A stretch of DNA of 64,000 bases from Oscillospiraceae bacterium (lineage in GTDB: Bacteria > Bacillota > Clostridia > Oscillospirales > Oscillospiraceae). A model generated the notes under the pieces. It saw nothing but the letters and a program-made list of their open reading frames with translations. It made no database searches and was not told where the DNA came from. Location: assembly GCA_017469795.1 (NCBI GenBank), contig JAFUFT010000016.1, positions 16,555 through 80,554 of the forward strand, written 5' to 3'. Positions 22,509-44,740 of this stretch are shown here, in pieces. Numbering within the stretch: position 1 is the stretch's first letter; each line of letters opens with the position of its first letter. Made by a program: the position numbers and the translations under genes.

Positions 22509-23024
22509 TTATTCGCCCAGCTGATCTCCGTCTTTGGCGTCATCCACGCCCACATCTCTGGGGGCAATGATGATGACATTGCTGGAGGCCTTCTTGATGG
22601 AGCCGTCCAGCGCGAAGGCGCAGCCGCTGAGGAAGTCGATCACCCGGCGGGCCACCTGATCGTTGGTTTCCTCGCAGTTGAGGATCACTGTGTCACCCTG
22701 GCAGATGTGCTTGGCGATTGCAGTCGCCGCGTCGAACTCCTCCGGCTTGACCAGAACCACACGATATTTGGAGCTGTCTGCCACGCCGCCCATGGTAATG
22801 GGGGTGGGGATCTCATTGACGGAATAGCCGCCCATTCCGGTATTCACCGGGGCAGCGCCCATCGGATTGATCACAGGCTCCTGGGCAGGCTGTACGGGGG
22901 TCACGGGGCGGGTGTAAGAAGGCTCCACATCCACATCCACGTCCAGATCGCTGCCGTCGTCAATCAGCGTGTCGTCATCGTCGTAGGGCCGGGTCAGTTT
23001 TTTCAGTTCGTCCATAATGCTCAT
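22509..23024 (-). CDS. sepF: cell division protein SepF
   Basis: The track start (TTG at 23039) lies inside the SD sequence. The likely start is the ATG at 23024 (MSIMDELKK...), 8 nt after GGAGG. The conserved SepF core is YRVVLVKPEEFDAATAIAKHICQGDTVILNCEE...ARRVIDFLSG. Confidence 0.85.
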   Translation of the reverse strand: MSIMDELKKLTRPYDDDDTLIDDGSDLDVDVDVEPSYTRPVTPVQPAQEPVINPMGAAPVNTGMGGYSVNEIPTPITMGGVADSSKYRVVLVKPEEFDAATAIAKHICQGDTVILNCEETNDQVARRVIDFLSGCAFALDGSIKKASSNVIIIAPRDVGVDDAKDGDQLGE

Positions 23025-23040
23025 GACAGTGTCCTCCAAA

Positions 23041-23745
23041 TCATTTTTTTACGTATTGTCTCGCGCCAAAAATTCGAGTCCCTACACGGATCATCGTGGT
23101 TCCCTCTTTGATGGCGTCGGCAAAGTCGTCGCTCATACCCATCGATAGGTATTCTATGTTAGTATTATCGTATTTTTTTCGCTTTATGTCAACATAAAGC
23201 TGATACATTTTCGCAAAATATCTCAAATTTCCTCCGTTTTCCACCGCGATAGGCGGGATGGTCATAAACCCGCGAAGGCACAAATTGGGATATTCTTCCA
23301 TTTTGGCCGACATTTCGTCCGCCTGTTCCGGCAGAATGCCGCTCTTCGCGGTCTCTCCGCCGATATTCACCTCGATCAGGATATCCTGGACAACGCCCTT
23401 TTTTTCCGCCAGACGGTTGATCACCGCCATCAGCTCCGGCGAATCCACCGACTGGATCAGGTCGGCCACGCCAACCAGAAACTTCGCCTTGTTTTTCTGA
23501 AGATGTCCGATGAAGTGGAGGGGCGCGCCGGTATAGGCGCTCTGCTCGTTCTTCTCCACCAGTTCCTGAACCCGGTTTTCCCCGCAGGCATCCACGCCCG
23601 CGGCGATGGCCGCCCGCACCTGCTCAGCCCCGTTCATCTTCGTGGCGGCCAGCAGCTGCACCGAACCCTCCGGACGGCCTGCCTGGGCCTCTGCCCGGGC
23701 CATTTCCTCCCGGATCCGGGCCACATTTTCCGCGATCACATTCAT
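23041..23745 (-). CDS. yggS: YggS/YlmE family pyridoxal-phosphate homeostasis protein
   Basis: I trimmed the start to MNVIAENVARIRE... at 23745, after AGGAG. The ORF has an alanine-racemase-N fold with the lysine motif LLAATKMNG. It sits upstream of sepF, as in the ylm cluster. Confidence 0.85.
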   Translation of the reverse strand: MNVIAENVARIREEMARAEAQAGRPEGSVQLLAATKMNGAEQVRAAIAAGVDACGENRVQELVEKNEQSAYTGAPLHFIGHLQKNKAKFLVGVADLIQSVDSPELMAVINRLAEKKGVVQDILIEVNIGGETAKSGILPEQADEMSAKMEEYPNLCLRGFMTIPPIAVENGGNLRYFAKMYQLYVDIKRKKYDNTNIEYLSMGMSDDFADAIKEGTTMIRVGTRIFGARQYVKK

Positions 23746-26614: not shown

Positions 26615-28591
26615 TTATGCTCGTTTGAACTGCCGTTCCAGATGGCCCCGGGTGATGGTAATGCACACGGGCCTTCCGTGGGGGCAGTATTTGATGTCGT
26701 CCCGGCGCATCAGCTCCGCCACCAGCGCCGCAAGCTCCCGGGGATCGGTCTTTCTCCCGCCCTTGATGGCGGCCTTGCAGGCCACCGTGTGGAGCATCTC
26801 GTCGAATACTGTATCCGGATCCAGCTTTTTTCCGTTTATGAGATCGGAGGCCAGCTGGGACAGCGTCGCCTCCGCGTCCTTCTCGTCGATGTCCGCAGGG
26901 ATGGCCCGCACCAGCAGCGTGTCCCCGCCGAAATCCTCCACCGTAAAGCCGAGACGGGAAAGCAGTCCTGCCTGCTCCAGCAGCACCGCGCTCTCCTCCC
27001 GGCCCAGGCTGGTCTGGACAGGCGCCAGGAGCATCTGGGACATGATTTCATGATCCTGGGCCCGGAACTTTTCAAACAAGATCCGCTCGTGGGCCGCGTG
27101 TTTGTCGAACAGCAGCAGCTCGTCCCCTTGCTCCACAATAATATATGTGTCCATGGTCTGGCCGATGATCCGGTAGGGGACCGATTCCGCTTTGGTCTCC
27201 ACGATCTCCTCTTTGGGCGTTTCCGGCACTGCCGGCACGGGAACAGGCGGCAAGTCCATGGCGGTCTGCTCCGGCGCAGAGAGGATCTCCGGCATAGGAG
27301 CCGCTTCTGCAGGCTCCTGACGCGGGGCTGCGGTCTCCAGCATGGGAGACGCCGGGGGGATCGGGGCGCTGCCCGCAGGGGTCGGCGCAAGACGGGCGCT
27401 ATCCCGCAGGGATGCGGCGGGCGCCCGTTCGGCCCGCTGCTGCAGGATCCCCAGGAACTCCCGCGCGGATTTCTGATCGGTCCGGTTCAGGGTGGATCGC
27501 TCCGGCTCCTGTTTGGCCCGGTACTGCTCCGCGGTCATGGTCTGATAAAAGCTGTTCTGGGGCTTTGCCGTCTGCTTCGGAATCGTCATCTCCGGACGGT
27601 CCGGGGTGCGGCTCAGGGCGCCCAGAACAATATAGTGGATGGCGTCGAACACGTCCCCCTCCCGGAGGAACTTCACCTCAGTTTTGGCAGGGTGGACGTT
27701 CACGTCCACCGCTGTAGGCGCCACCGTAATATGCAGCACGCAGATGGGGAACCGGCCCACCATCATCTGGTTTTTATAGGCTTCCTCCAGGGCCGCCGCC
27801 ATCATCTTGGATCTGACGTACCGTCCGTTGACAAAGAAGTGCTGATAGCTGCGGCTGCCCCGGTTGGCCGTGGGTTTCCCCACGAAGCCTTGAACTGTCA
27901 CGCCGTCGGAGCTGCCCCGGACCTCCACCATCTCCTTCGCCGCCTGACGGCCCATGGCCGCGTAGATGGCCGACAGGAGCTTCCCGTCCCCGGGGGTGGA
28001 CAGCTCCGGCTTGCCGTCCCGGATGAAGCGGAAGGCGATCTCCGGATGGGAAAGGGCCTGTCGCTGGACCGCCCCGGCGATATAGCTGCCCTCCACGCTG
28101 TCCCGCTTGAGGAATTTCATGCGGGCGGGGGTATTGTAGAACAGATCCCGCACAATGATGGTGGTTCCGTCCGGGCAACCTGCCGGGGACACGTCCAGCA
28201 CGTTCCCCGCCTCCACCCGTACGGAGGTCCCCGCTTCGGCATCAGCGGTCTTGGTCAGCAGATCGATCCTGCTGACGGCACTGATGGCCGCCAGCGCTTC
28301 GCCCCGGAAGCCCATGGTCACGATCTCATTGAGGTCTTCCGCCCGGGAGATCTTGGATGTGGCGTGACGCAGGAAGGCCGTGGGCGCGTCCTCAGGGCTC
28401 ATGCCCGAGCCGTTATCCGTGACCCGCATGAAGGTAATGCCGCCGTTCTTGATTTCCACGATGATCTGGGTGGCGCCTGCGTCGATGGCGTTTTCCACCA
28501 GTTCCTTGATGACAGAGGCCGGGCGTTCCACCACCTCGCCGGCGGCGATCATGTCCGCCAGATTCGGCGAGAGCTTATGTATTTTTCCCAT
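26615..28591 (-). CDS. mutL: DNA mismatch repair protein MutL
   Basis: I trimmed the start to MGKIHKLSPNLADMIAAGEVVERPASVIKELVENAIDAGA at 28591. The ORF has the GHKL ATPase N-terminus, a proline-rich linker and a C-terminal endonuclease-type domain. Confidence 0.92.
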   Translation of the reverse strand: MGKIHKLSPNLADMIAAGEVVERPASVIKELVENAIDAGATQIIVEIKNGGITFMRVTDNGSGMSPEDAPTAFLRHATSKISRAEDLNEIVTMGFRGEALAAISAVSRIDLLTKTADAEAGTSVRVEAGNVLDVSPAGCPDGTTIIVRDLFYNTPARMKFLKRDSVEGSYIAGAVQRQALSHPEIAFRFIRDGKPELSTPGDGKLLSAIYAAMGRQAAKEMVEVRGSSDGVTVQGFVGKPTANRGSRSYQHFFVNGRYVRSKMMAAALEEAYKNQMMVGRFPICVLHITVAPTAVDVNVHPAKTEVKFLREGDVFDAIHYIVLGALSRTPDRPEMTIPKQTAKPQNSFYQTMTAEQYRAKQEPERSTLNRTDQKSAREFLGILQQRAERAPAASLRDSARLAPTPAGSAPIPPASPMLETAAPRQEPAEAAPMPEILSAPEQTAMDLPPVPVPAVPETPKEEIVETKAESVPYRIIGQTMDTYIIVEQGDELLLFDKHAAHERILFEKFRAQDHEIMSQMLLAPVQTSLGREESAVLLEQAGLLSRLGFTVEDFGGDTLLVRAIPADIDEKDAEATLSQLASDLINGKKLDPDTVFDEMLHTVACKAAIKGGRKTDPRELAALVAELMRRDDIKYCPHGRPVCITITRGHLERQFKRA

Positions 28592-28721
28592 GATTATCAC
28601 CTTGATTCTTTGGGTTCTGATGTGGTTAATTGGAGTTTGTAGGGGTTTTGATTTTCTTGGACGCCAACTGGCGCCGCCGAAGACTTCCCTGAAAGAACTC
28701 CACAAACTCCGATTTGTATGG

Positions 28722-29198
28722 CTATTCGTATTCGGTTCTGATTGTGAACTGCTCTGGCAGATTGAAAATACTTGTTTTTAGAAAGATCGGATAGAAGTAC
28801 TCATCCCGTAAGCGTTCAAATGCAAGCCATTCAAAGTCGTGTTTATGCTGTCTCTCATGGAGTGTAAATCTTTCACCCTTTTCCAACAGCCCTGTTTCGG
28901 ATATGTTCATCAAATAGTAGATACAGATTTCATGATAGTTCAGATTATCGACATCTTCCTTGAAAAAGCTCTGATTCAGCCATAGAGGACGAATGATTTG
29001 GGGCGTGATATTCAGTTCTTCTTCCACTTCTCTGACAACGGCATGTTCCGCAGTTTCTCCCATCTGGACTCTGCCTCCGGGTAAATAGAAGTAGGGAGAG
29101 CGTTCGTCCTGCATTGCCAGAATTCTATTGTTTGAGATCATTACAGCGCAGACCCTATAATTGAACTTTTCTTGTCCAGATACATATGCAATATCCAT
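28722..29198 (-). CDS. NUDIX hydrolase (low-G+C cassette)
   Basis: The 158-aa ORF follows the SD GAGGTG and has the Nudix box GGRVQMGETAEHAVVREVEEELN. Two 60-nt lines inside the gene count 35% and 45% G+C, against about 63% in the neighbouring genes. Confidence 0.8.
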   Translation of the reverse strand: MDIAYVSGQEKFNYRVCAVMISNNRILAMQDERSPYFYLPGGRVQMGETAEHAVVREVEEELNITPQIIRPLWLNQSFFKEDVDNLNYHEICIYYLMNISETGLLEKGERFTLHERQHKHDFEWLAFERLRDEYFYPIFLKTSIFNLPEQFTIRTEYE

Positions 29199-29244
29199 TT
29201 ATCACACCTCAAAAAGCTCCAATTTGTCCTCCAAAAACGATCGC

Positions 29245-29940
29245 TCAGCCTCTCAGCGCCAGCATCCCGATCCCGTTGATCACCGCGTGCACCAGCACCG
29301 GCGTCCAGATTGTCCCGCCCAGCTCATAGGACGCGCAGAGGGCCATACTCGGCAGGACATACAGCAGCCCGTTCAGCACGGCCGTCCCAGCGTCCATCTC
29401 CGGGAGGTACGGCACAAGATGCATCCCGGCAAACACCAGCGCCGTGATGGCATACGCCGCCGGGCGGCTCTTCTCCCGCAGAGACCCGAACAGCACGCCC
29501 CGCAGAAGCGTTTCCTCGGTCAGTGGCGTCAGCAGCACCGTCGCTGCCAGCATCATTGGGAAATTCTCCACAGTCAGGGATGCGATCACCTGATCGTTGG
29601 GGGATGCCAGTTCCGGAGCGAACCGTTCAAAGACGACCCCTGCGCCCACCTGGGCCACCGCGTACAGGCACCAGCCAAACACCGCGCCGCGAATCAGCCG
29701 TCCCGGCTCCCGGGCCGCCGCGGCGAGAGAATCCCGCAGGAACCGCCACAGGAGGGCCACGGTGATCAGAAATCCGGCGATATAGAACACCTTGTTCCGG
29801 GTCAGGCTGTCGCCGGGCAGGCCCAGCGACCTGAGAAGGAGGGAAACCGCGCTGCCCATCAGGAAGACATAGGCGGCCAGCCACACCAGTCCGGCGATCT
29901 TCTCCCAGAGCCGGAGCGCCACGGGAAAGGGCCGTTTCAT
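29245..29940 (-). CDS. CPBP family intramembrane glutamic endopeptidase (CAAX/Abi-type)
   Basis: The 231-aa polytopic ORF has the motifs EETLLRG, FAGMH and HAVINGIG. Its start overlaps the mutS stop by 4 nt. Confidence 0.8.
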   Translation of the reverse strand: MKRPFPVALRLWEKIAGLVWLAAYVFLMGSAVSLLLRSLGLPGDSLTRNKVFYIAGFLITVALLWRFLRDSLAAAAREPGRLIRGAVFGWCLYAVAQVGAGVVFERFAPELASPNDQVIASLTVENFPMMLAATVLLTPLTEETLLRGVLFGSLREKSRPAAYAITALVFAGMHLVPYLPEMDAGTAVLNGLLYVLPSMALCASYELGGTIWTPVLVHAVINGIGMLALRG

Positions 29941-39211: not shown

Positions 39212-40141
39212 TTATCTGCATTTCTCCAGAAGCTGTTCCCATTTTTCGTCCACATACTGTTGGGCGCTCTCCAGCATCCACTCGTTGCCGGGCTTGAAGC
39301 AGTGCTTAAACCGGCCCTGGAGACGCATATAGTCTTCAATAGGCTTTTTCTTCTTCGGCTCGTAGGTCAGGTGCCACACGCCCTCCTCCACCTCGTACAT
39401 GGGCCAGAGGCAGGTGTCCACCGCCAGCTGGGTGATGGTGGGCAGCAGCGCCGTCTCGTACTGCCAGCCTCTGGGGCAGGGGGACAGCACGTTGAGGAAG
39501 CAGGGCCCGTGGGTATAGATGGCCTTCTTTGCCTTCTCGTGGAGGTCCCGGAAGTTGCCGATGAAGGTGGTCTGGGCGGCATAGGGGATGCCGTGGGCCA
39601 CCATGATGGCGGTCAGATCCTTCTTGTCCTGCTGTTTGCCCTGCTTCTCCCGGCCCACGGGGGCGGTGGTGGCATTGGCAAACCGGGGCGTGGAGGAGGA
39701 CCGCTGGATGCCGGTGTTCATATAGGCCTCGTTGTCGTAGCAGACATAGACCATGTCATGTCCCCGCTCCATGGCGCCGGACAGGGACTGGAAGCCGATA
39801 TCATAAGTGCCGCCGTCGCCGCCGAAGGTGATGAACTTGAAGTTGTCCTGCACCTTGCCCCGGCGCTTGAGCGCCTCGTAGCAGGCCTCCACGCCGGAAC
39901 AGGTGGCCGCGGCGTTCTCAAAGGCGGTGTGGACGTAGCTCTCGGTCCAGGAGGTATAGGGGTACATGAAGGTGGAGACCTCCAGGCAGCCGGTGGCGTT
40001 GGTGACAACCGCCTTGTCCTCCGGCTCCAGGGCCCGCATGACCGCCCGGCAGGTGATGCCCGCGCCGCATCCGGCGCACAGCCGGTGGCCGCCCACAAAG
40101 CGTTCAGGCTTTTCCAGTTCTTTTTTGAATTGATAGGCCAT
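39212..40141 (-). CDS. 2-oxoacid:ferredoxin oxidoreductase, beta (TPP-binding) subunit (POR/VOR family)
   Basis: The 309-aa ORF has the motifs CAGCGAGI, FGGDGGTYDIGFQSLSGA and YDNEAYMNTGIQ. Confidence 0.9.
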   Translation of the reverse strand: MAYQFKKELEKPERFVGGHRLCAGCGAGITCRAVMRALEPEDKAVVTNATGCLEVSTFMYPYTSWTESYVHTAFENAAATCSGVEACYEALKRRGKVQDNFKFITFGGDGGTYDIGFQSLSGAMERGHDMVYVCYDNEAYMNTGIQRSSSTPRFANATTAPVGREKQGKQQDKKDLTAIMVAHGIPYAAQTTFIGNFRDLHEKAKKAIYTHGPCFLNVLSPCPRGWQYETALLPTITQLAVDTCLWPMYEVEEGVWHLTYEPKKKKPIEDYMRLQGRFKHCFKPGNEWMLESAQQYVDEKWEQLLEKCR

Positions 40142-40143
40142 GA

Positions 40144-41331
40144 TTATACCTCCTCCCGGACGCCCATATGGGTGTAGACTTCGCCGACCTGGCCGGTTTG
40201 CGCGAGGTGATGGAGCCGGTCGTAAACGGCGGCGATGTCCTTGGTGGACACGTCCCGGCCGCCCAGGCCGTAGACGATATTGATGAGTTTTGGCCGGCTC
40301 TCCAGATCGTACAGGGCGCTGCGGGTCTCGGCAAACAGCGGACCGCCACAGGCGGAAAAGCCCTCGGACTTGTCCATGACCGCCACGGCTCTGCAGTGTT
40401 TGAGGGCCCGGGCCAGTTCCTCTCCGGGGAAGGGCCGGAACACCCGGACCTTGACAAGCCCGACTTTTCGGCCTTCGGCCCGGAGCATGTCCACCGTGGC
40501 CTTGGCGGTGCCGGCGGTGGAGCCGATGACCACAATGGCCTCCTCCGCATCTTCCATACGGTATTCCTCAAAGAAACCGTACTTCCGGCCGGTCAGCGCC
40601 TCAAAGCGCCGGGCCTGCTCCAGGATGGCGGCTTTGGCGTTCTTCATGGCCTCGGCCTCCTGCTTCTTGTGCTCCATATAATAATGTGTCACGTCGTAGG
40701 GACCCACCGCCAGAGGTTCCCGGCTGTTGAGCAGGTAGTGCTCCGGGTTGTACTCGCCCACGAAGCCCTTGACCTCTTCGTCCTCCAGCAGCTCGATGTT
40801 CTCCACCGCGTGGGATGTGATGAAGCCGTCCTGGCAGATCATCACCGGCAGACGCACCTCCGGCGTCTCGGCGATGGGGAATGCCTGAACGTAGTTGTCG
40901 TAGACCTCCTGATTGTTCTCGGCGTAGATCTGGATCCAGCCGGCATCCCGGGCGCCCATGGCGTCGGAGTGATCGTTGTTGATGTTGATGGGGCCGCTGA
41001 GGGCACGGGTGGACACCGCCAGAACAATGGGCAGGCGGCTGGAGGCCGCCACGTACAGAAGCTCGTACATCAGCGCAAGGCCAGCCGAGGAGGTGGCGCT
41101 GATGGCCCGTCCGCCGGCAGCCGCCGCGCCCATGCATACGCTCATGGAACTGTGCTCGGACTCCACCGTCACCAGTTCCGTGTGAACCAGGCCGTCGGCC
41201 ACATACTGGGCGAAATACTGGGGGATCTCTGTGGAGGGGGTGATGGGGAATGCACCCATCACGTCCGGGTCGATCTGGCGCATGGCCACAGCCACAGCCT
41301 CGTTGCCGGAGAGCCGGTCAAGATGTGCCAT
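40144..41331 (-). CDS. 2-oxoacid:ferredoxin oxidoreductase, alpha subunit
   Basis: I trimmed the start to MAHLDRLSGNEAVAVAM at 41331, after GGAAGGAGG. The ORF has the motifs GAFPITPSTEI and ESEHSSMS. Confidence 0.9.
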   Translation of the reverse strand: MAHLDRLSGNEAVAVAMRQIDPDVMGAFPITPSTEIPQYFAQYVADGLVHTELVTVESEHSSMSVCMGAAAAGGRAISATSSAGLALMYELLYVAASSRLPIVLAVSTRALSGPININNDHSDAMGARDAGWIQIYAENNQEVYDNYVQAFPIAETPEVRLPVMICQDGFITSHAVENIELLEDEEVKGFVGEYNPEHYLLNSREPLAVGPYDVTHYYMEHKKQEAEAMKNAKAAILEQARRFEALTGRKYGFFEEYRMEDAEEAIVVIGSTAGTAKATVDMLRAEGRKVGLVKVRVFRPFPGEELARALKHCRAVAVMDKSEGFSACGGPLFAETRSALYDLESRPKLINIVYGLGGRDVSTKDIAAVYDRLHHLAQTGQVGEVYTHMGVREEV

Positions 41332-41630
41332 TATTCCGCCTCCTTCCATACAATGGCGTCAAAGGGACATGCGGTGATGCAGATCCCGCAGCCCTTACAG
41401 TGCATCAGGTCGAATTCGCCCCGCTTGCCGTCCTTCACAGGGATGGCGCTGTCGGGACAGTAGGGCACGCACAGCAGACACTGCTTGCATTTATCCTCCA
41501 AGAACACCGGCGTCTGGGTCCGCCAGTCGCCGGTATTGAACAGCAAGGATGTGGCCGGTTCGTAGATCTCCCCGCCGGGGGTCAGATCCTGCCAGGGGGA
41601 ATTTTCGTGAATATCTTTTGCGCGTTTCAT
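41331..41630 (-). CDS. 2-oxoacid:ferredoxin oxidoreductase, delta subunit (2x[4Fe-4S] ferredoxin)
   Basis: The 99-aa ORF has two Cys clusters (CKQCLLCVPYCP and CKGCGICITACP). Its stop overlaps the alpha-subunit start (TAATG). Confidence 0.87.
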   Translation of the reverse strand: MKRAKDIHENSPWQDLTPGGEIYEPATSLLFNTGDWRTQTPVFLEDKCKQCLLCVPYCPDSAIPVKDGKRGEFDLMHCKGCGICITACPFDAIVWKEAE

Positions 41631-42208
41631 CCCTGTACCTCCTCCATGGACGTTTTCAGCACCCGCATATTGCCCTCAATGACCTGGGGCTTGGACGCGA
41701 ACTTGTGGTGGAAGCTCTCTTCCATGTCTTTGGCGAATTTTTCCGGATCCACCACCCGGCTGACCTTCACCGTGGCCGCCAGCATGGGCGTGTTGGGGAA
41801 AACGGCACCCAGGATCTCCCTGGAGATCCGGTTGGCGTCGATGGTGCAGACCCGGCCCCTGTACCCTTTCAGCAGGGGGCGCAGTTCCTCGGGGGAGCGG
41901 CTGGAGTTGATGATGATGGCGCCGGACTCCTTCAGACCCGCGGTCACATCCACGCAGGAGATCAGTCCCTCGTCCACCACCACCACATAATCCGGCTCAT
42001 AGATGTTGGAGTGGATCCCGCAGCGCTCGGTGCTGATGCGGTTGTATGCGGTGATGGGCGCGCCGGACCGCTCGGGGCCGTATTCCGGAAAACCCTGCAC
42101 ATATTTGCCGGAGGAGAACGCCGCGTCCGCCAGAAGCAGGCACGCGGTCTTTGCGCCCTGGCCGCCCCGGCCGTGCCAGCGGATCTCCACCATATCCTGA
42201 CTGCTCAT
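41627..42208 (-). CDS. 2-oxoacid:ferredoxin oxidoreductase, gamma subunit
   Basis: I trimmed the start to MSSQDMVEIRWHGRGGQGAKTA at 42208, after AAGGAGG. The upstream part of the track ORF is the T-box leader. Confidence 0.87.
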   Translation of the reverse strand: MSSQDMVEIRWHGRGGQGAKTACLLLADAAFSSGKYVQGFPEYGPERSGAPITAYNRISTERCGIHSNIYEPDYVVVVDEGLISCVDVTAGLKESGAIIINSSRSPEELRPLLKGYRGRVCTIDANRISREILGAVFPNTPMLAATVKVSRVVDPEKFAKDMEESFHHKFASKPQVIEGNMRVLKTSMEEVQG

Positions 42209-42239
42209 ACTGAAAACCTCCTTGACGGTTGTAAAAGGC

Positions 42240-42495
42240 AAAATAAAAAGCCCCCATCCGTAACCGGACGAGAGCCAGACGGCTTTCGCTGTACCACCCG
42301 TTACTGCGTACCAACATACGCATCTCCCGATAACGGCGGAGGGCCGGCAGCGCCTACTGTGGTTCGGGCTGCAGTTCCGAAGTGATTTTCGGCAGCAGGC
42401 TACTCTCACCGGGCTTGCACCGTCCCCGGCTCGCTTTGGATTTGACCTGAAGCGTACTGTCTTCATCATCACATTTCAAGTGTTTTATGGAATTG
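42240..42495 (-). promoter_or_regulatory. T-box riboswitch leader, specifier AUC (Ile)
   Basis: Read on the minus strand. The GA/K-turn motif is GAUGAUGAAGACAGUA, with the AG bay AGCGAG and the distal loop GGUGCAA. The specifier loop is GAAA-AUC-A (codon at 42386-42384), then CUUC pairing with the GAAG upstream of AGUA. The T-box sequence is AACGGGUGGUACAGCG (RC of 42287-42302); its UGGU bulge fits an ACCA end (A73, as in tRNA-Ile). A long imperfect hairpin plus GGGGGCUUUUUAUUUU lies immediately before the first gene's RBS. Confidence 0.78.
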
Positions 42496-42500
42496 TGTAT

Positions 42501-42530
42501 ACTATAAAGGAAACCGCGCCCCTTTGTCAA
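42501..42530 (-). promoter_or_regulatory. sigma-A type promoter for the Ile T-box/oxidoreductase operon
   Basis: The minus strand reads TTGACA (RC of 42525-42530), an 18-nt spacer, then TATAGT (RC of 42501-42506). Confidence 0.55.
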
Positions 42531-42721
42531 GCGTTTTAAAGCGCTACATTTTCACAAGCTTTCCGCCGGGATCCTTCCTGTTTTTGTATATTTTGTCCCT
42601 TTCCGGCGCACAGTTGTCCACATCTTGTAGCAAAGATGAATTTCCTGCACAAGCAACTTGCATTGCAGGATTTCGTTCAAATCGCCCGGTAAAAAATTTT
42701 GAGCTTTTTTCATAAAAACTA

Positions 42722-42750
42722 TTGACAAAATCGAGAAACTATTGTATATT
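42722..42750 (+). promoter_or_regulatory. sigma-A type promoter at the head of the ORF-free region
   Basis: TTGACA (42722-42727), a 17-nt spacer, then TATATT (42745-42750). Confidence 0.5.
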
Positions 42751-42756
42751 GTAGAC

Positions 42757-43246
42757 ACAAGGAACCGGGAGGTGATTCCAATGAAGAATTAGAGCACGAC
42801 GATTCGGCGAGAGAATCGGTCGGAAGATTTGAAGGATTGATGTGTGTTATCTTGCATCTATAACTGAGAATGGATCAAACTCAGAAATAATCCGGGGAGA
42901 CCGGTGAAAATAGATCATAAGAAACAGGAGGAATCGTCCAATGTACTGATCGGTCATCCGTCCAGTAACCATTGTGATGGAGGCTCGGGTCCCATGAAAA
43001 TGTGAGCGGCGAATCCGCAAATCGTATGAGAATACACATGAGAGATATTCATTGAGGACAGTCCCAAAGAGAAATGATTCCTGGAGGAAAGCAGTACAAA
43101 TACAAATTTGAGGACACTCCGAAAACACGAAAATTGATCCAAAGAAAACAATTGAATAAGAAAGGTTGAGGAAGGTATGATTGAACCCATCCAGAGCTGA
43201 CCACCGTGTATGATTCGTAGCATCGTACACGGTGGTTGTTTTTTCT
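42757..43246 (+). ncRNA. candidate ~490-nt noncoding RNA, or a long leader of the MATE gene; class unknown
   Basis: The region is bounded by the consensus promoter at 42722-42750 and a strong intrinsic terminator at 43200-43246. No ORF longer than a few codons has an SD. Two counted 60-nt lines give 38-40% G+C, against 63% in a line of the adjacent MATE gene. The plus strand is visibly purine-rich, which supports plus-strand transcription. It has local hairpins (CGAUUC-ggcgaga-GAAUCG, CUGAG-n11-CUCAG, CCGG-ggaga-CCGG, GCGG-cgaau-CCGC). Confidence 0.4.
43200..43246 (+). terminator. strong intrinsic terminator
   Basis: ACCACCGTGTA(tgat)-tcgtagc-(atcg)TACACGGTGGT, an 11-bp perfect outer stem plus an inner GAT/ATC pairing, followed by TGTTTTTTCTCTCT. 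Confidence 0.85.
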
Positions 43247-43294
43247 CTCTGCGATTTATACAAAAATGGTCCGGGATCCCGGAACATCCTTGGC

Positions 43295-43323
43295 TTGCAG
43301 GCTTTTTTATCCTGTGCTACAAT
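43295..43323 (+). promoter_or_regulatory. possible own promoter of the MATE gene (extended -10)
   Basis: TTGCAG (43295-43300), a 17-nt spacer ending in TGC, then TACAAT (43318-43323). Confidence 0.45.
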
Positions 43324-43378
43324 ACCTGCTGTGTATTGTTTACGATTCGAAGGATTTTCAAAGGAGCCCGAAGCCAAT

Positions 43379-44740
43379 ATGGAACAGACCATGATCCGCG
43401 ACCTCACCGCCGGCAGCGTCGGAAAAGAGCTGCTGTGTTTTTCTTTCCCGTTTATGCTCTCCAACGCCCTGCAGACCATCTACAATCTGGTGGATATGGT
43501 CATTGTTGGCCAGTTTGTGGGCTCCGTTGGCCTCAGCGCCGTTTCCATCGGCGGCCAGCTCATGTGGCTCATGTGCTGCCTGGCCATTGGATACACCTCC
43601 GGCGGCCAGATCTTCATCTCCCAGCTGGTGGGCGCGGGTGATCACGCCGGTGTCCGCAGAACCATCGGAACGATCTTTACCACGATGGCCGGGTTCTCCC
43701 TGGTGATCACCACGCTGGGCGTCGTGTTCCGCGATCCCCTGCTTGCGCTGCTCAACACGCCCCCGGAGGCGCTGGATCAGGCCCGGGACTATGTGCTGAT
43801 CTGCGCCGCGGGCATGTTCTTTGTCTACGGGTACAACACCGTTTCCGCCATCCTGCGGGGCATGGGCGATTCCACCCGTCCCTTCCTCTTCATCGCCATC
43901 TCCGCCCTGTTGAATGTGATCCTGGACCTGATCTTTGTGGGTCCCCTCGGCATGGCCTCTGCCGGCGCCGCGCTGGCCACGATCCTGGCCCAGGCGGTGT
44001 CCTTCATCATTTCGATCATCTATCTCTACCGCCGGAAGGAGAGCTTTGGTTTTGACTTCAAGCTCCGCAGCTTCCTCCCCGACGGAAAAACCTTCGCCGC
44101 CCTGTCCCGGCTGGGACTGCCGCTGACGGTCCAGTCCACCGCCATCAACGTCTCCATGCTCTACGTCTCCGCCGGCGTCAACAGCTACGGCCTGGTCTTC
44201 TCCTCCACCTTCGGCATCGGCGGCAAGCTCCAGTCCGTCATGTTCATCATCACCAACTCCATCTCCACCGCCTCCGCCTCCATGTTCGGTCAAAACCTGG
44301 GTGCCGGAAAACACGACCGGGTCAAAAAGATCTTCTGGTTTGGAAATCTCTACTGCATGATTTTCTTCCTGGTGGTGACTGTGTTCTGCCTGACGATCCC
44401 GGTGCCGGTCTTCCGGCTGTTCACCCAGGATCCGGACGTCCTGGCCCAGGCGGCACACTACATGGTCGTCCAGGTGGTAATGTTCTCCGGGTTCGCCTCC
44501 ATGACCGCCGGGATCGCCCTGATCAACGGCATCGGCAACGGCTCCCTGAGCCTGATCACCGCCCTGCTGGATGGGGTCGTGGTCCGGATCGGGCTGTGTA
44601 TGCTCCTGGCAGGCCCCCTCGGCTGGGGCGTCTGGGGCTACTTCTGGGGGAACGCCCTGGCGGGCTATGTCAGCACTGTCATCGGCTGGCTCTACTATCT
44701 CACCGGCGCCTGGAAACGCAGGAAGCTGATGATCGACTGA
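43379..44740 (+). CDS. MATE family efflux transporter
   Basis: I trimmed the start to MEQTMIRDLTAGSVGKELL at 43379, after AAAGGAG. The ORF has the typical MATE N-terminus (FSFPFMLSNALQTIYNLVDMVIVGQF) and is a 12-TM protein. Confidence 0.9.
   Translation: MEQTMIRDLTAGSVGKELLCFSFPFMLSNALQTIYNLVDMVIVGQFVGSVGLSAVSIGGQLMWLMCCLAIGYTSGGQIFISQLVGAGDHAGVRRTIGTIFTTMAGFSLVITTLGVVFRDPLLALLNTPPEALDQARDYVLICAAGMFFVYGYNTVSAILRGMGDSTRPFLFIAISALLNVILDLIFVGPLGMASAGAALATILAQAVSFIISIIYLYRRKESFGFDFKLRSFLPDGKTFAALSRLGLPLTVQSTAINVSMLYVSAGVNSYGLVFSSTFGIGGKLQSVMFIITNSISTASASMFGQNLGAGKHDRVKKIFWFGNLYCMIFFLVVTVFCLTIPVPVFRLFTQDPDVLAQAAHYMVVQVVMFSGFASMTAGIALINGIGNGSLSLITALLDGVVVRIGLCMLLAGPLGWGVWGYFWGNALAGYVSTVIGWLYYLTGAWKRRKLMID

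Follow-up and report, generated by a model that had tools for sequence, protein, structure and literature searches.

Which kind of gene lies upstream of the MATE efflux gene in this Oscillospiraceae genome, where a strong promoter and a strong terminator enclose no credible protein gene? The window, i.e., the whole stretch of DNA that was analysed, is 64,000 nt long, and all window-wide figures (G+C, Rfam scan, copy search) refer to that length. According to the initial annotation, the gap is low in G+C and purine-rich, a near-consensus promoter at 42722-42750 and a strong intrinsic terminator delimit a transcript of about 490 nt, and a second promoter follows at 43295-43323. These outlines hold: G+C across 42600-43300 is 0.39-0.45 against 0.61 in the whole window, purines make up 60% of its + strand over the length of the transcript, and the following elements were located.

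42701..42721, + strand: A+T-rich block CTTTTTTCATAAAAAC, immediately 5' of the -35 hexamer
42722..42750, + strand: sigma-A-type promoter TTGACA-17-TATATT, matching at 11/12 positions
42753..43244, + strand: predicted RNA transcript of 492 nt, whose conserved 5' end is AGACACAA and whose 3' end is the U-tract of the terminator
43198..43244, + strand: intrinsic terminator, a 16-17 bp stem (43198-43238) followed by a U-tract
43295..43323, + strand: candidate promoter of the MATE gene itself, TTGCAG-17-TACAAT, outside the RNA

Only two promoter matches of 11/12 were found between 42000 and 44000, the second being the divergent T-box promoter (42530-42501, - strand). Both hexamers are identical in all homologues listed, with a variable spacer between them; a CA(C/T)AAAAC block beside the -35 hexamer is also retained among the homologues listed, and the A+T-rich block could be a UP element or a factor-binding site. 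At the other end, the scan returned a terminator stem of 17 pairs and a T-run, and across 14 lineages 97% of the cells of this stem are paired, with compensatory changes at six pairs. The homologues are 492-627 nt long, and the L018 type reaches 1286 nt. Two independent contigs (L052 and L057, 98.8% identical to each other) cover the L018-type RNA from +13 through the U-tract, at 47x and 30x, and their coextension with the RNA hints at a discrete, abundant transcript. A spurious-ORF lookup for RNA-only contigs of the same species found no ORF on record.

The promoter, 5' domain and terminator are common to about 14 related lineages, while the neighbours vary. Upstream of the RNA lies either the POR operon or a flavin reductase gene. 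Downstream, MATE-1 or MATE-2 follows directly in ten named lineages (W, L003, L004, L006, L007, L008, L010, L011, L018, and L059), and a convergent gene follows in L046/L054, L049, L050, L051/L055, and L070, where the 3' domain of the RNA is intact. Since the flanking genes change while the promoter, 5' domain and terminator stay, the RNA appears not to be a MATE leader, and the comparison of lineages confirms it as a conserved, stand-alone gene with its own promoter and terminator, which persists without MATE and without the POR operon. The initial preference for a stand-alone RNA over a leader is thereby borne out, and the MATE-upstream block that holds the second candidate promoter is conserved in MATE-1 orthologues without the RNA.

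A functional link to the divergent T-box/POR operon was rejected, as the RNA is retained in L006 and L059 without the operon and the POR operons of distant relatives have no such RNA. A mobile or phage origin was discarded as well: blastn against plasmids and phages gave no match, the 5' motif was not found in viral contigs, and five viral matches to the pattern of module Y (described below) are due to chance, lying within high-G+C, apparently coding sequence. Within the 64-kb window no other copy of the RNA was found. The family was seen in one clade only, and its hosts are uncultured gut and rumen Oscillospiraceae.

All + strand ORFs in the gap are 33 aa or shorter. The minus-strand ORFs of 210 aa and 89 aa vary in frame and length among homologues, and Pfam gave no significant match for the minus-strand ORFs of 210, 89 and 68 aa or for the plus-strand ORF of 63 aa. 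No conserved ORF of at least 10 aa was found among the homologues, whose longest frames differ in frame and length; a small-protein gene or a dual-function sRNA would be expected to have one of about 10 or more codons under coding constraint. A decayed protein gene was ruled out because the Pfam search was negative and the long frames are not conserved across homologues. The earlier statement that the gap holds no credible CDS thus stands; the label "noncoding" is right in that there is no credible protein gene, but it overlooked a conserved series of mini-cistrons of 2-3 codons, each with Shine-Dalgarno (SD) sequence, start and stop, and a 7-codon ORF.

As the initial annotation had recognised no known family and had called for an Rfam scan, Rfam 15 was searched, including OLE, GOLLD, ROOL, raiA, HEARO, 6S, tmRNA, RNase P, SRP, riboswitches, and CsrB/Rsm. 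Neither the whole window nor five homologous loci gave a match at the gathering score. With the cutoff relaxed to E<=10 for 42100-43500, the matches inside the RNA did not rise above chance level. ARAGORN found neither tRNA nor tmRNA, and a literature search returned no description of such an RNA. We could not match the predicted SD/start/stop array to the arrangement of any described RNA family.

The modules follow a common plan, in which GGAGG and a spacer of 8-10 nt with CC at its end precede ATG or GTG, and a stop comes after one or two codons more. Each RNA carries 4-8 such units, in the order of a 5' unit, a three-module block (MY-stop, MKx-stop, MNx-stop) that occurs once or twice, and the 7-codon ORF. 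In the window they are placed as follows.

42767..42792, + strand: mini-cistron 1, GGGAGG, 8 nt ending in TCCA, ATG AAG AAT TAG (MKN-stop), varied in homologues
42927..42949, + strand: mini-cistron Y, GGAGG, 9 nt, ATG TAC TGA (MY-stop), the best-conserved module
42979..43005, + strand: mini-cistron K, GGAGGC, a 10-nt spacer with CCC at its end, ATG AAA ATG TGA (MKM-stop), a 2-3-codon ORF in most lineages
43053..43133, + strand: decayed modules N (TGAGGACAGTCCC-AAG), Y2 (GGAGGAAAGCAGTAC) and N2 (TGAGGACACTCCG-AAA), aligned to intact modules elsewhere
43158..43200, + strand: 3' domain, AAGAAAGG..GAGGAAGGT and then the 7-codon ORF, aligned among lineages
43177-43200, + strand: 7-codon ORF, ATG ATT GAA CCC ATC CAG AGC TGA, its stop at the foot of the terminator stem

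The homologues of mini-cistron 1 read MK-stop, MKN-stop, MKS-stop, MKT-stop or MAK-stop, with ATG or GTG as start and TAA, TAG or TGA as stop. In module Y the SD is 100% identical and CCN-ATG-TAC-stop 94%, the stop being TGA, TAA or TAG by lineage. Along one Y-K block, conservation is 1.0 in the SD, 0.6 in the spacer and 0.94 in CCN-ATG-TAC-stop, and the maxima of conservation coincide with the predicted translation signals. The three decayed modules have lost their start codons in the window genome, and an intact counterpart in another lineage reads, for example, GGAGGACAGTCCC ATG AAC AGG TAG. The two decayed N modules form the only tandem repeat inside the window RNA, a single 17-nt pair, and in L004 the modules are decayed and the 3' domain is intact. 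Such decay, together with the variable copy number, is as expected for redundant sites.

An ATG or GTG stands 8-10 nt downstream of GGAGG in 35 of the 37 distinct GGAGG contexts; the scan also allowed other triplets, and none was seen. Candidate ORF starts in the window have GGAGG at a similar spacing of 7-10 nt according to crude ORF calls. An in-frame stop occurs at the second or third codon after the start in 38 of 45 distinct modules (84%), compared with 0% in the +1 frame and 4% in the +2 frame, although these counts are not independent events because the lineages are mutually related. The frame comparison shows selection for immediate in-frame stops, whose identity is interchangeable (TGA 25, TAA 12, TAG 6), with a swap from TGA to TAA between L052 and L057; the module starts likewise swap between ATG and GTG. 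Module Y has the two-codon minigene anatomy of the phage lambda bar sites, and 38 of the 45 distinct modules are of the bar type in that the SD stands at a functional distance from the start codon and the stop comes after one or two sense codons. In the window RNA, GGAGG, the exact complement of the anti-SD, occurs four times against 0.66 expected (p = 0.005).

Two features of the modules exceed or depart from this plan. Nearly all modules have CC(C) right before the start, whereas CCC occurs at only 1/41 candidate gene starts in the window, and this module-specific element implies a constraint beyond simple ribosome binding, e.g., SD:UCC pairing or a protein. The stop of module K is missing in three variants and three window modules are without start codons, and both facts speak against the translation-based reading favoured below.

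All four local hairpins claimed by the initial annotation could be located.

42797..42822, + strand: hairpin CGAUUC/GAAUCG, set between invariant AGCACG and CGGAAG, with (N)GCGAG(N) as its conserved loop
42864..42884, + strand: stem-loop CUGAG/CUCAG, variable in sequence
42892..42904, + strand: hairpin CCGG/CCGG, followed by invariant AAUAGAU (42909-42915)
43006..43018, + strand: hairpin GCGG/CCGC, 3' of module K, recovered by RNAalifold in the consensus of 12 units

The first hairpin covaries, its pairing being kept through one-sided and two-sided changes, and its motif as the sole query recovered 13 metagenome loci. The position of the second is kept in W, L003 and L050 with a different loop, and the remaining lineages differ in sequence and length. 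The third is conserved, with L007 altered on both sides. Beyond these few short hairpins, the RNA body is predicted to lack global structure, and its consensus fold is sparse and weak (-9.4 kcal/mol for the 5' domain and -6.9 kcal/mol for the module unit). Compared with shuffled sequence, the RNA including its terminator has a folding z-score of -1.6, and the value becomes +0.09 once the terminator is left out. A predicted long-range helix ACACA/UGUGU was not adopted, as it shows zero covariation, its pairing being disrupted in L050 and weaker in L018. The suggested likeness to the large 'ornate' Clostridia RNAs, which would entail a stable, extensive and covarying fold, is contradicted by the z-score of the body and the sparse consensus, and that candidate was rejected. 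Because the body is unstructured, the module sites would be accessible.

In the 3' domain, the last ORF has seven codons in all lineages aligned, with the consensus M-[ISV]-[DE]-P-x-Q-x, and its stop overlaps the foot of the terminator. An Ile-sensing leader peptide was rejected as its role, since its Ile codons are not conserved and are replaced by Ser or Val in several lineages.

From these observations, we lean slightly towards the RNA being a ribosome-loading sink, or a monitor of the translation apparatus, built of minimal translation units. Its own strong promoter and terminator would yield a stand-alone RNA carrying these units; ribosomes would load on the perfect SD (GGAGG), start translation, join two or three residues and stop immediately. 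In this way the RNA might serve as a sink for, or a monitor of, initiating ribosomes, and possibly of tRNAs lost via peptidyl-tRNA drop-off, rather than as a folded ribozyme, a riboswitch or a leader of the neighbouring gene. We infer that ribosomes do translate the modules, and that their engagement would act as a decoy, brake or sensor of translation. According to previous studies, 2-3-codon minigenes with strong SDs are translated and can stabilise RNA or deplete tRNA (PMC8708949), and both re-initiation and peptidyl-tRNA drop-off are reported to be highest where a strong SD is combined with a length of 2-3 codons (PMC8708949). A more specific version is possible though doubtful, in which a 'minigene-array' RNA would have the sole task of driving ribosomes through futile cycles of initiation and termination on 2-3-codon cistrons, and would thereby titrate initiating ribosomes and/or trap Tyr, Lys and Asn tRNAs as peptidyl-tRNA, or report the efficiency of initiation and termination.

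Two observations sit uneasily with a sink. The module types keep type-specific sequence (TAC always in Y), a feature that would be superfluous in a generic ribosome sink, and futile translation of an RNA with a consensus promoter should burden the cell.

Could the RNA instead act in cis? Ribosomes stalled on the tiny ORFs, chiefly the last, might melt the terminator and allow read-through into the MATE efflux gene, so that translation stress or antibiotics would be sensed. Three-codon uORFs have been predicted in antibiotic-sensing leaders, e.g., that of vmlR (PMC9226507), and here the 7-codon ORF and at least three tiny candidate ORFs lie 5' of a terminator whose foot overlaps the last stop in all lineages aligned, with MATE directly downstream in the ten lineages named above. 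Such an attenuator is nevertheless unlikely. A constant regulated gene is not found downstream, a convergent gene taking its place in five lineages; the MATE-1 upstream block with its candidate promoter is kept where the RNA is absent; and the two cDNA-like contigs end at the U-tract. No antiterminator is conserved, since in 12/14 lineages even the strongest upstream pairing of the terminator 5' arm falls below the shuffled mean and its location differs from lineage to lineage, and 4-8 uORFs are more than such a device needs.

The repeated units might also bind a protein. In this explanation, GGAGG...UCC(C)AUG would capture CsrA or another translational repressor, as in CsrB/RsmZ, and the starts and stops would be by-products of the mimicry of ribosome-binding sites. 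The 4-8 GGA-containing motifs of variable copy number accord with it, as does the CC(C) before the start, which is atypical for candidate gene starts, and small hairpins could form via GGA/UCC pairing, albeit a weak one of 3 bp. However, it is GGAGG that is enriched and not GGA (14 against 11 expected, p = 0.18), the Csr/Rsm covariance models have no match even at E<=10, and protein binding needs neither a start at fixed spacing nor stops in frame. No csrA was noticed among the unannotated ORF calls of the 64-kb window. We consider a protein sponge improbable; if the modules did bind protein, this could be the first CsrB-like sponge from Firmicutes, a group in which we know of none described.

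Quite improbable, in our view, is a base-pairing regulator or a sponge of C-rich sRNAs. Its partners would be other RNAs, recognised by the 5'-domain loops or by the SD-like G-rich tracts, and the mini-ORFs would merely load ribosomes that shield this long, unstructured RNA from RNases. The 5' domain and its GCGAG loop are the most conserved parts outside the modules, and L004 keeps an intact 3' domain despite the decay of its modules. A distance of 15 nt separates the 5' end from the first SD, and known 5' stabilisers likewise carry an SD close to their 5' end. Stabilisation of mRNA by minigene translation or SD binding has been reported (PMC8708949). Protection alone, however, leaves three module types, their fixed order and their type-specific codons unexplained.

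It is very improbable that the RNA is the mRNA of active micro-peptides, whether the 7-aa product of the last ORF and/or the fMet di- and tripeptides. The constant length of that ORF, its invariant Pro4 and Gln6, and its third-position changes (ATT/ATC, AGT/AGC, GAT/GAC, ACT/ACC) are compatible with a selected peptide, but the invariant CCC and the C-rich bases next to it are equally explained by pairing with the G-rich SD, and positions 2, 5 and 7 vary freely. An export signal, a partner gene and a conserved ORF of at least 10 aa are all absent, and we know of no function for di- or tripeptides. Finally, despite the low G+C and the partial decay of modules in the window genome, the idea of a non-functional region, whether variable junk or a gene remnant, is effectively refuted, since most of it can be aligned in five lineages whose MATE proteins are only ~76-80% identical, the promoter is kept, the terminator is kept with compensatory changes, and neither a Pfam match nor a conserved long frame exists.

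If the minigene-array version held, abundant Oscillospiraceae of gut and rumen would possess in this RNA an inbuilt means to brake or gauge their global translation. These bacteria are common in human gut and rumen samples and uncultured; to our knowledge, almost no regulatory RNAs have been described from them. A conserved RNA that is transcribed on its own and selected for perfect ribosome-binding sites with a stop soon after would join two ideas, minigenes and multi-site decoy RNAs. As far as we know, minigenes, start-stops and tiny uORFs occur solely as isolated elements within leaders, genes and phage DNA, and multi-site decoy RNAs are known solely for proteins, e.g., CsrA or RNA polymerase. 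The suggestion is that bacteria may buffer, throttle or sense the translation machinery by means of an RNA.

Among known systems, the two-codon minigenes mg2 in the axe-txe leader and the LEE1 leader minigene resemble module Y in anatomy, i.e., an SD, AUG, one sense codon, and a stop. Known minigenes occur singly, within leaders or in phage regions, and either work in cis or came to notice through their toxicity, whereas here 4-8 conserved units in a fixed order of types form a gene of their own, complete with promoter and terminator. The start-stop sites of E. coli (yecJ, hslR), minimal ORFs with SD-like sequences, have been shown to bind ribosomes and are unable to give a useful product (bioRxiv 10.1101/520783). 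They are single, nested in protein genes, and have the stop right after the start, unlike the arrays described here, which lie in a non-protein-coding transcript and have one or two sense codons each.

The erm and lmo0919 leaders belong, with that of vmlR, to the uORF-dependent attenuators of transcription. The antibiotic-sensing vmlR leader (PMC9226507) resembles our RNA in having an SD and 2-3-codon ORFs 5' of an intrinsic terminator, often with an efflux gene downstream. The RNA differs from such leaders in its want of an antiterminator, its inconstant downstream gene with a candidate promoter of its own, and its many uORFs as opposed to one. SprF1 of S. aureus is likewise purine-rich, and ribosome binding and a damping of translation have been proposed for it; it is a short antitoxin RNA of unrelated sequence, without SD-start-stop arrays. 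CsrB, RsmY and RsmZ are also stand-alone RNAs made of repeated short motifs that resemble ribosome-binding sites and vary in number. The RNA described here departs from them in matching none of their covariance models and in conserving the full GGAGG together with a start at fixed spacing and a stop, a combination that points to the ribosome, and not CsrA, as its probable ligand.

A near-consensus promoter and a strong terminator delimiting a candidate noncoding RNA of about 490 nt had been described in the initial annotation, within a low-G+C gap that is purine-rich on the plus strand and contains no CDS, and each of these points was recovered computationally. The scan of 42000-44000 found two promoters with 11/12 consensus matches and one strong intrinsic terminator, giving a predicted transcript of 492 nt, 60% of which is purine. 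The G+C content is 0.39-0.45 across the gap versus 0.61 in the whole window. There is no credible ORF in the gap, since plus-strand ORFs are all ≤33 aa, and the minus-strand open frames, which have no Pfam match and no conservation in the homologues, are as expected opposite a purine-rich plus strand. The features are as follows:

39212-42208, minus strand: four-subunit 2-oxoacid:ferredoxin oxidoreductase (POR) operon (gamma, delta, alpha, beta)
42261-42478, minus strand: T-box leader (76 bits, E = 2e-16; below the Rfam gathering score of 93)
42530-42501, minus strand: divergent promoter (11/12 match, consensus scan)
42722-42750, plus strand: RNA promoter TTGACA-17-TATATT (11/12 match, consensus scan)
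43198-43238, plus strand: intrinsic terminator, 17 pairs followed by a T-run
43379: start of the MATE efflux gene

A palindrome (CAAAAATGGTCCGGGATCCCGGAACATCC, 43261-43292) separates the RNA terminator from the candidate MATE promoter and scores as a weak terminator-like site on the minus strand; at the equivalent place, the homologous loci L006 and L059 have a second hairpin with a T-run. The other low-G+C stretches of the window (28551-29290, 740 nt; 23001-23340, 340 nt; G+C 0.44) gave nothing at gathering score in Rfam.

The window belongs to the MAG of an uncultured member of the Ruminococcaceae/Oscillospiraceae. When the gap sequence was searched with nhmmer against the MATE-orthologue loci of species-representative genomes, clear homologues were found at L003, L006, L007, L008, L010, L011, and L018, and a weak match of the 3' end only at L004. 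Thirteen further metagenome loci were retrieved with a 34-nt pattern from the best-conserved hairpin, and L059 and L070 were added via look-ups of MATE and POR homologues. The nhmmer alignments span promoter, RNA, and terminator; all homologues inspected share identical -35 and -10 hexamers, with a variable spacer between them. Full-length RNAs measure 492-627 nt, and the L018 type 1286 nt. Pairing in the terminator helix reaches 97%, six pairs show compensatory changes, and the CGAUUC/GAAUCG hairpin noticed in the initial annotation keeps its pairing despite changes on one or both sides. Judged by comparative sequence analysis within one clade, from which all the evidence comes, the RNA is a conserved gene.

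The conserved content of this RNA is, as read from the alignments, an array of minimal cistrons, each with a Shine-Dalgarno (SD) sequence, a start, few codons, and a stop:

5' module, in every RNA: SD, 8-9 nt, ATG/GTG, AAG, optionally one codon, stop
Three-module block Y-K-N, one or two copies per RNA
Y module: GGAGG, 9 nt, ATG TAC, stop
K module: GGAGGC, 10 nt, ATG, one to two codons, stop, then the GCGG hairpin
N module: GGAGGAC(A/G)GTCCC, ATG/GTG, AAC, one codon, stop
3' domain, in every RNA: 7-codon ORF M-[ISV]-[DE]-P-x-Q-x, with its stop at the terminator foot

The window copy contains the following units:

42781, plus strand: intact unit MKN-stop
42941, plus strand: intact unit MY-stop
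42994, plus strand: intact unit MKM-stop
43053-43133, plus strand: three further units, start codons lost
43177, plus strand: intact unit MIEPIQS-stop

ATG or GTG follows GGAGG at 8-10 nt in 35 of 37 distinct family contexts, and an in-frame stop is the second or third codon after the start in 38 of 45 distinct modules (84%), versus 0% and 4% in the +1 and +2 frames of the same modules; since the lineages are related, there were fewer independent events than these counts suggest. All three stops are used (TGA 25, TAA 12, TAG 6) and interchange at homologous positions, for example between two contigs 98.8% identical, and ATG and GTG interchange at starts. Conservation is highest in the SD (1.0) and the CCN-ATG-codon-stop core (0.94-0.97), versus 0.6-0.7 in spacers and linkers. 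GGAGG stands 7-10 nt before candidate ORF starts in the window, so that the modules, with their matching spacing, resemble true sites of translation initiation. A CC(C) immediately preceding the start codon sets the modules apart; CCC occurs at one of 41 candidate gene starts in the window.

Several lineages depart from this plan. In L004, the internal modules have decayed and are A+T-rich (L004:1-470, e.g., TAGGACAGATCAATGTATAAA), and the 3' domain, 7-codon ORF, and terminator are intact and adjoin a candidate promoter of the MATE paralogue MATE-2. L010 alone carries a ~130-nt segment within the RNA (L010:~400-535), which is bounded by ~11-bp inverted repeats (TTGATTGTAAT / ATTACAATCAA) and looks like a small inserted element. 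The length of the L018 type (L018:2900-3720; also L052 and L057) comes from a purine-rich insertion of ~700-800 nt, in which short repeats (GCAGC/GCAAC.., CGGAA..) abound together with decayed N-type modules whose ORFs are longer. Two ENA contigs of different assemblies, L052 (1281 nt, 47x) and L057 (1275 nt, 30x), match only this 1286-nt RNA, from +13 to the terminator U-tract; such boundaries and coverages are as expected of transcript-derived contigs, a suggestive hint of expression.

The neighbours of the RNA vary. Downstream lies MATE-1 (the window, L003, L008, L010, L011, L018, L059), MATE-2 (L004, L006, L007), or, beyond a second terminator, a convergent gene on the minus strand (L046/L054, L049, L050, L051/L055, L070); on the upstream side most lineages have the T-box/POR operon, and L006 and L059 have a flavin reductase. 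The RNA is missing from several MATE-2/MATE-1 loci, and more distant relatives, among them Oscillibacter sp. 1-3, lack it at their POR operons. The MATE-1 upstream block, with the separate candidate promoter noticed earlier, is conserved even where the RNA is absent, and no conserved antiterminator was found for the RNA terminator. The RNA is therefore neither a MATE leader nor an appendage of the POR operon; by these comparisons it is an autonomous gene, in line with the stand-alone RNA first suggested. In many relatives, MATE-2 (~45% identical) lies directly upstream of MATE-1 (L004, L006, L007, L009, L012-L017, L020, L058), and the window has MATE-1 only.

On the divergent side, the minus-strand promoter is predicted to drive the T-box leader upstream of the four-gene POR operon, an arrangement shared by homologous loci. 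The specifier-loop triplet, as read from the cmscan alignment, is AUC (Ile), as would be expected if the enzyme produced the 2-oxoacid of Ile through reductive carboxylation. Between the two promoters, ~190 nt (42531-42720) are conserved and contain an inverted repeat, CCTGCA-N14-TGCAGG, at 42644-42669, a possible operator of the RNA promoter. Its extended form (TCCTGCAA..TTGCAGGA) accompanies the RNA in L006, which has no POR operon there, and is degenerate in L018 and L059.

The RNA had been compared, speculatively, in size and setting to the large ornate RNAs, a likeness that did not hold. The folding z-score is -1.6 for the whole RNA and +0.09 without the terminator, and the consensus folds from RNAalifold are sparse (a hairpin whose GCGAG loop is conserved, CCGG and GCGG hairpins, a sequence-variable stem-loop, and 3-bp GGA/UCC pairings). 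No known family was matched: Rfam 15 gave zero hits at gathering score in the window and five homologous loci, and at E≤10 nothing beyond chance-level matches. An ornate structured RNA was thus rejected.

For an unstructured RNA with perfect SD-start units at native spacing, the simplest ligand is the ribosome, and selection for near-immediate in-frame stops, by any of three codons, is hard to explain unless ribosomes read the units. According to previous studies, two-codon minigenes that have a strong SD undergo translation and can stabilise RNAs, strongly expressed minigenes deplete tRNA via peptidyl-tRNA drop-off (PMC8708949), and ribosomes bind to start-stop sites both in vitro and in vivo (bioRxiv 10.1101/520783). 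On these grounds we favour, by a modest degree, an RNA that works by loading ribosomes onto its mini-cistrons. Ribosomes so loaded might make it a sink for the translation apparatus, a brake on it, or a gauge of it; the RNA could, for instance, titrate initiating ribosomes, trap tRNAs, or let translation control its own 3' hairpin. A cis attenuator for MATE is unlikely, as the antiterminator and constant downstream gene that define attenuators are both absent. Equally unlikely is a CsrA-like protein sponge, which shares with this RNA only the CsrB-type logic of repeated sites. A base-pairing RNA that ribosomes protect seems slightly less probable still, micro-peptide products are improbable, and junk is scarcely credible for a locus aligned from promoter to terminator among relatives.

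Compared with known systems, the modules qualify by sequence as minigenes, and they resemble the predicted three-codon uORF of the vmlR leader (PMC9226507). In the literature searched, we found no published account of a dedicated RNA gene that consists of conserved minimal cistrons in an ordered array. We rate the RNA as joining known kinds, minigenes and multi-site decoy RNAs, in a variant form; a minigene array that throttles or senses translation is a tentative, rather doubtful possibility, which, if true, would be categorically new.
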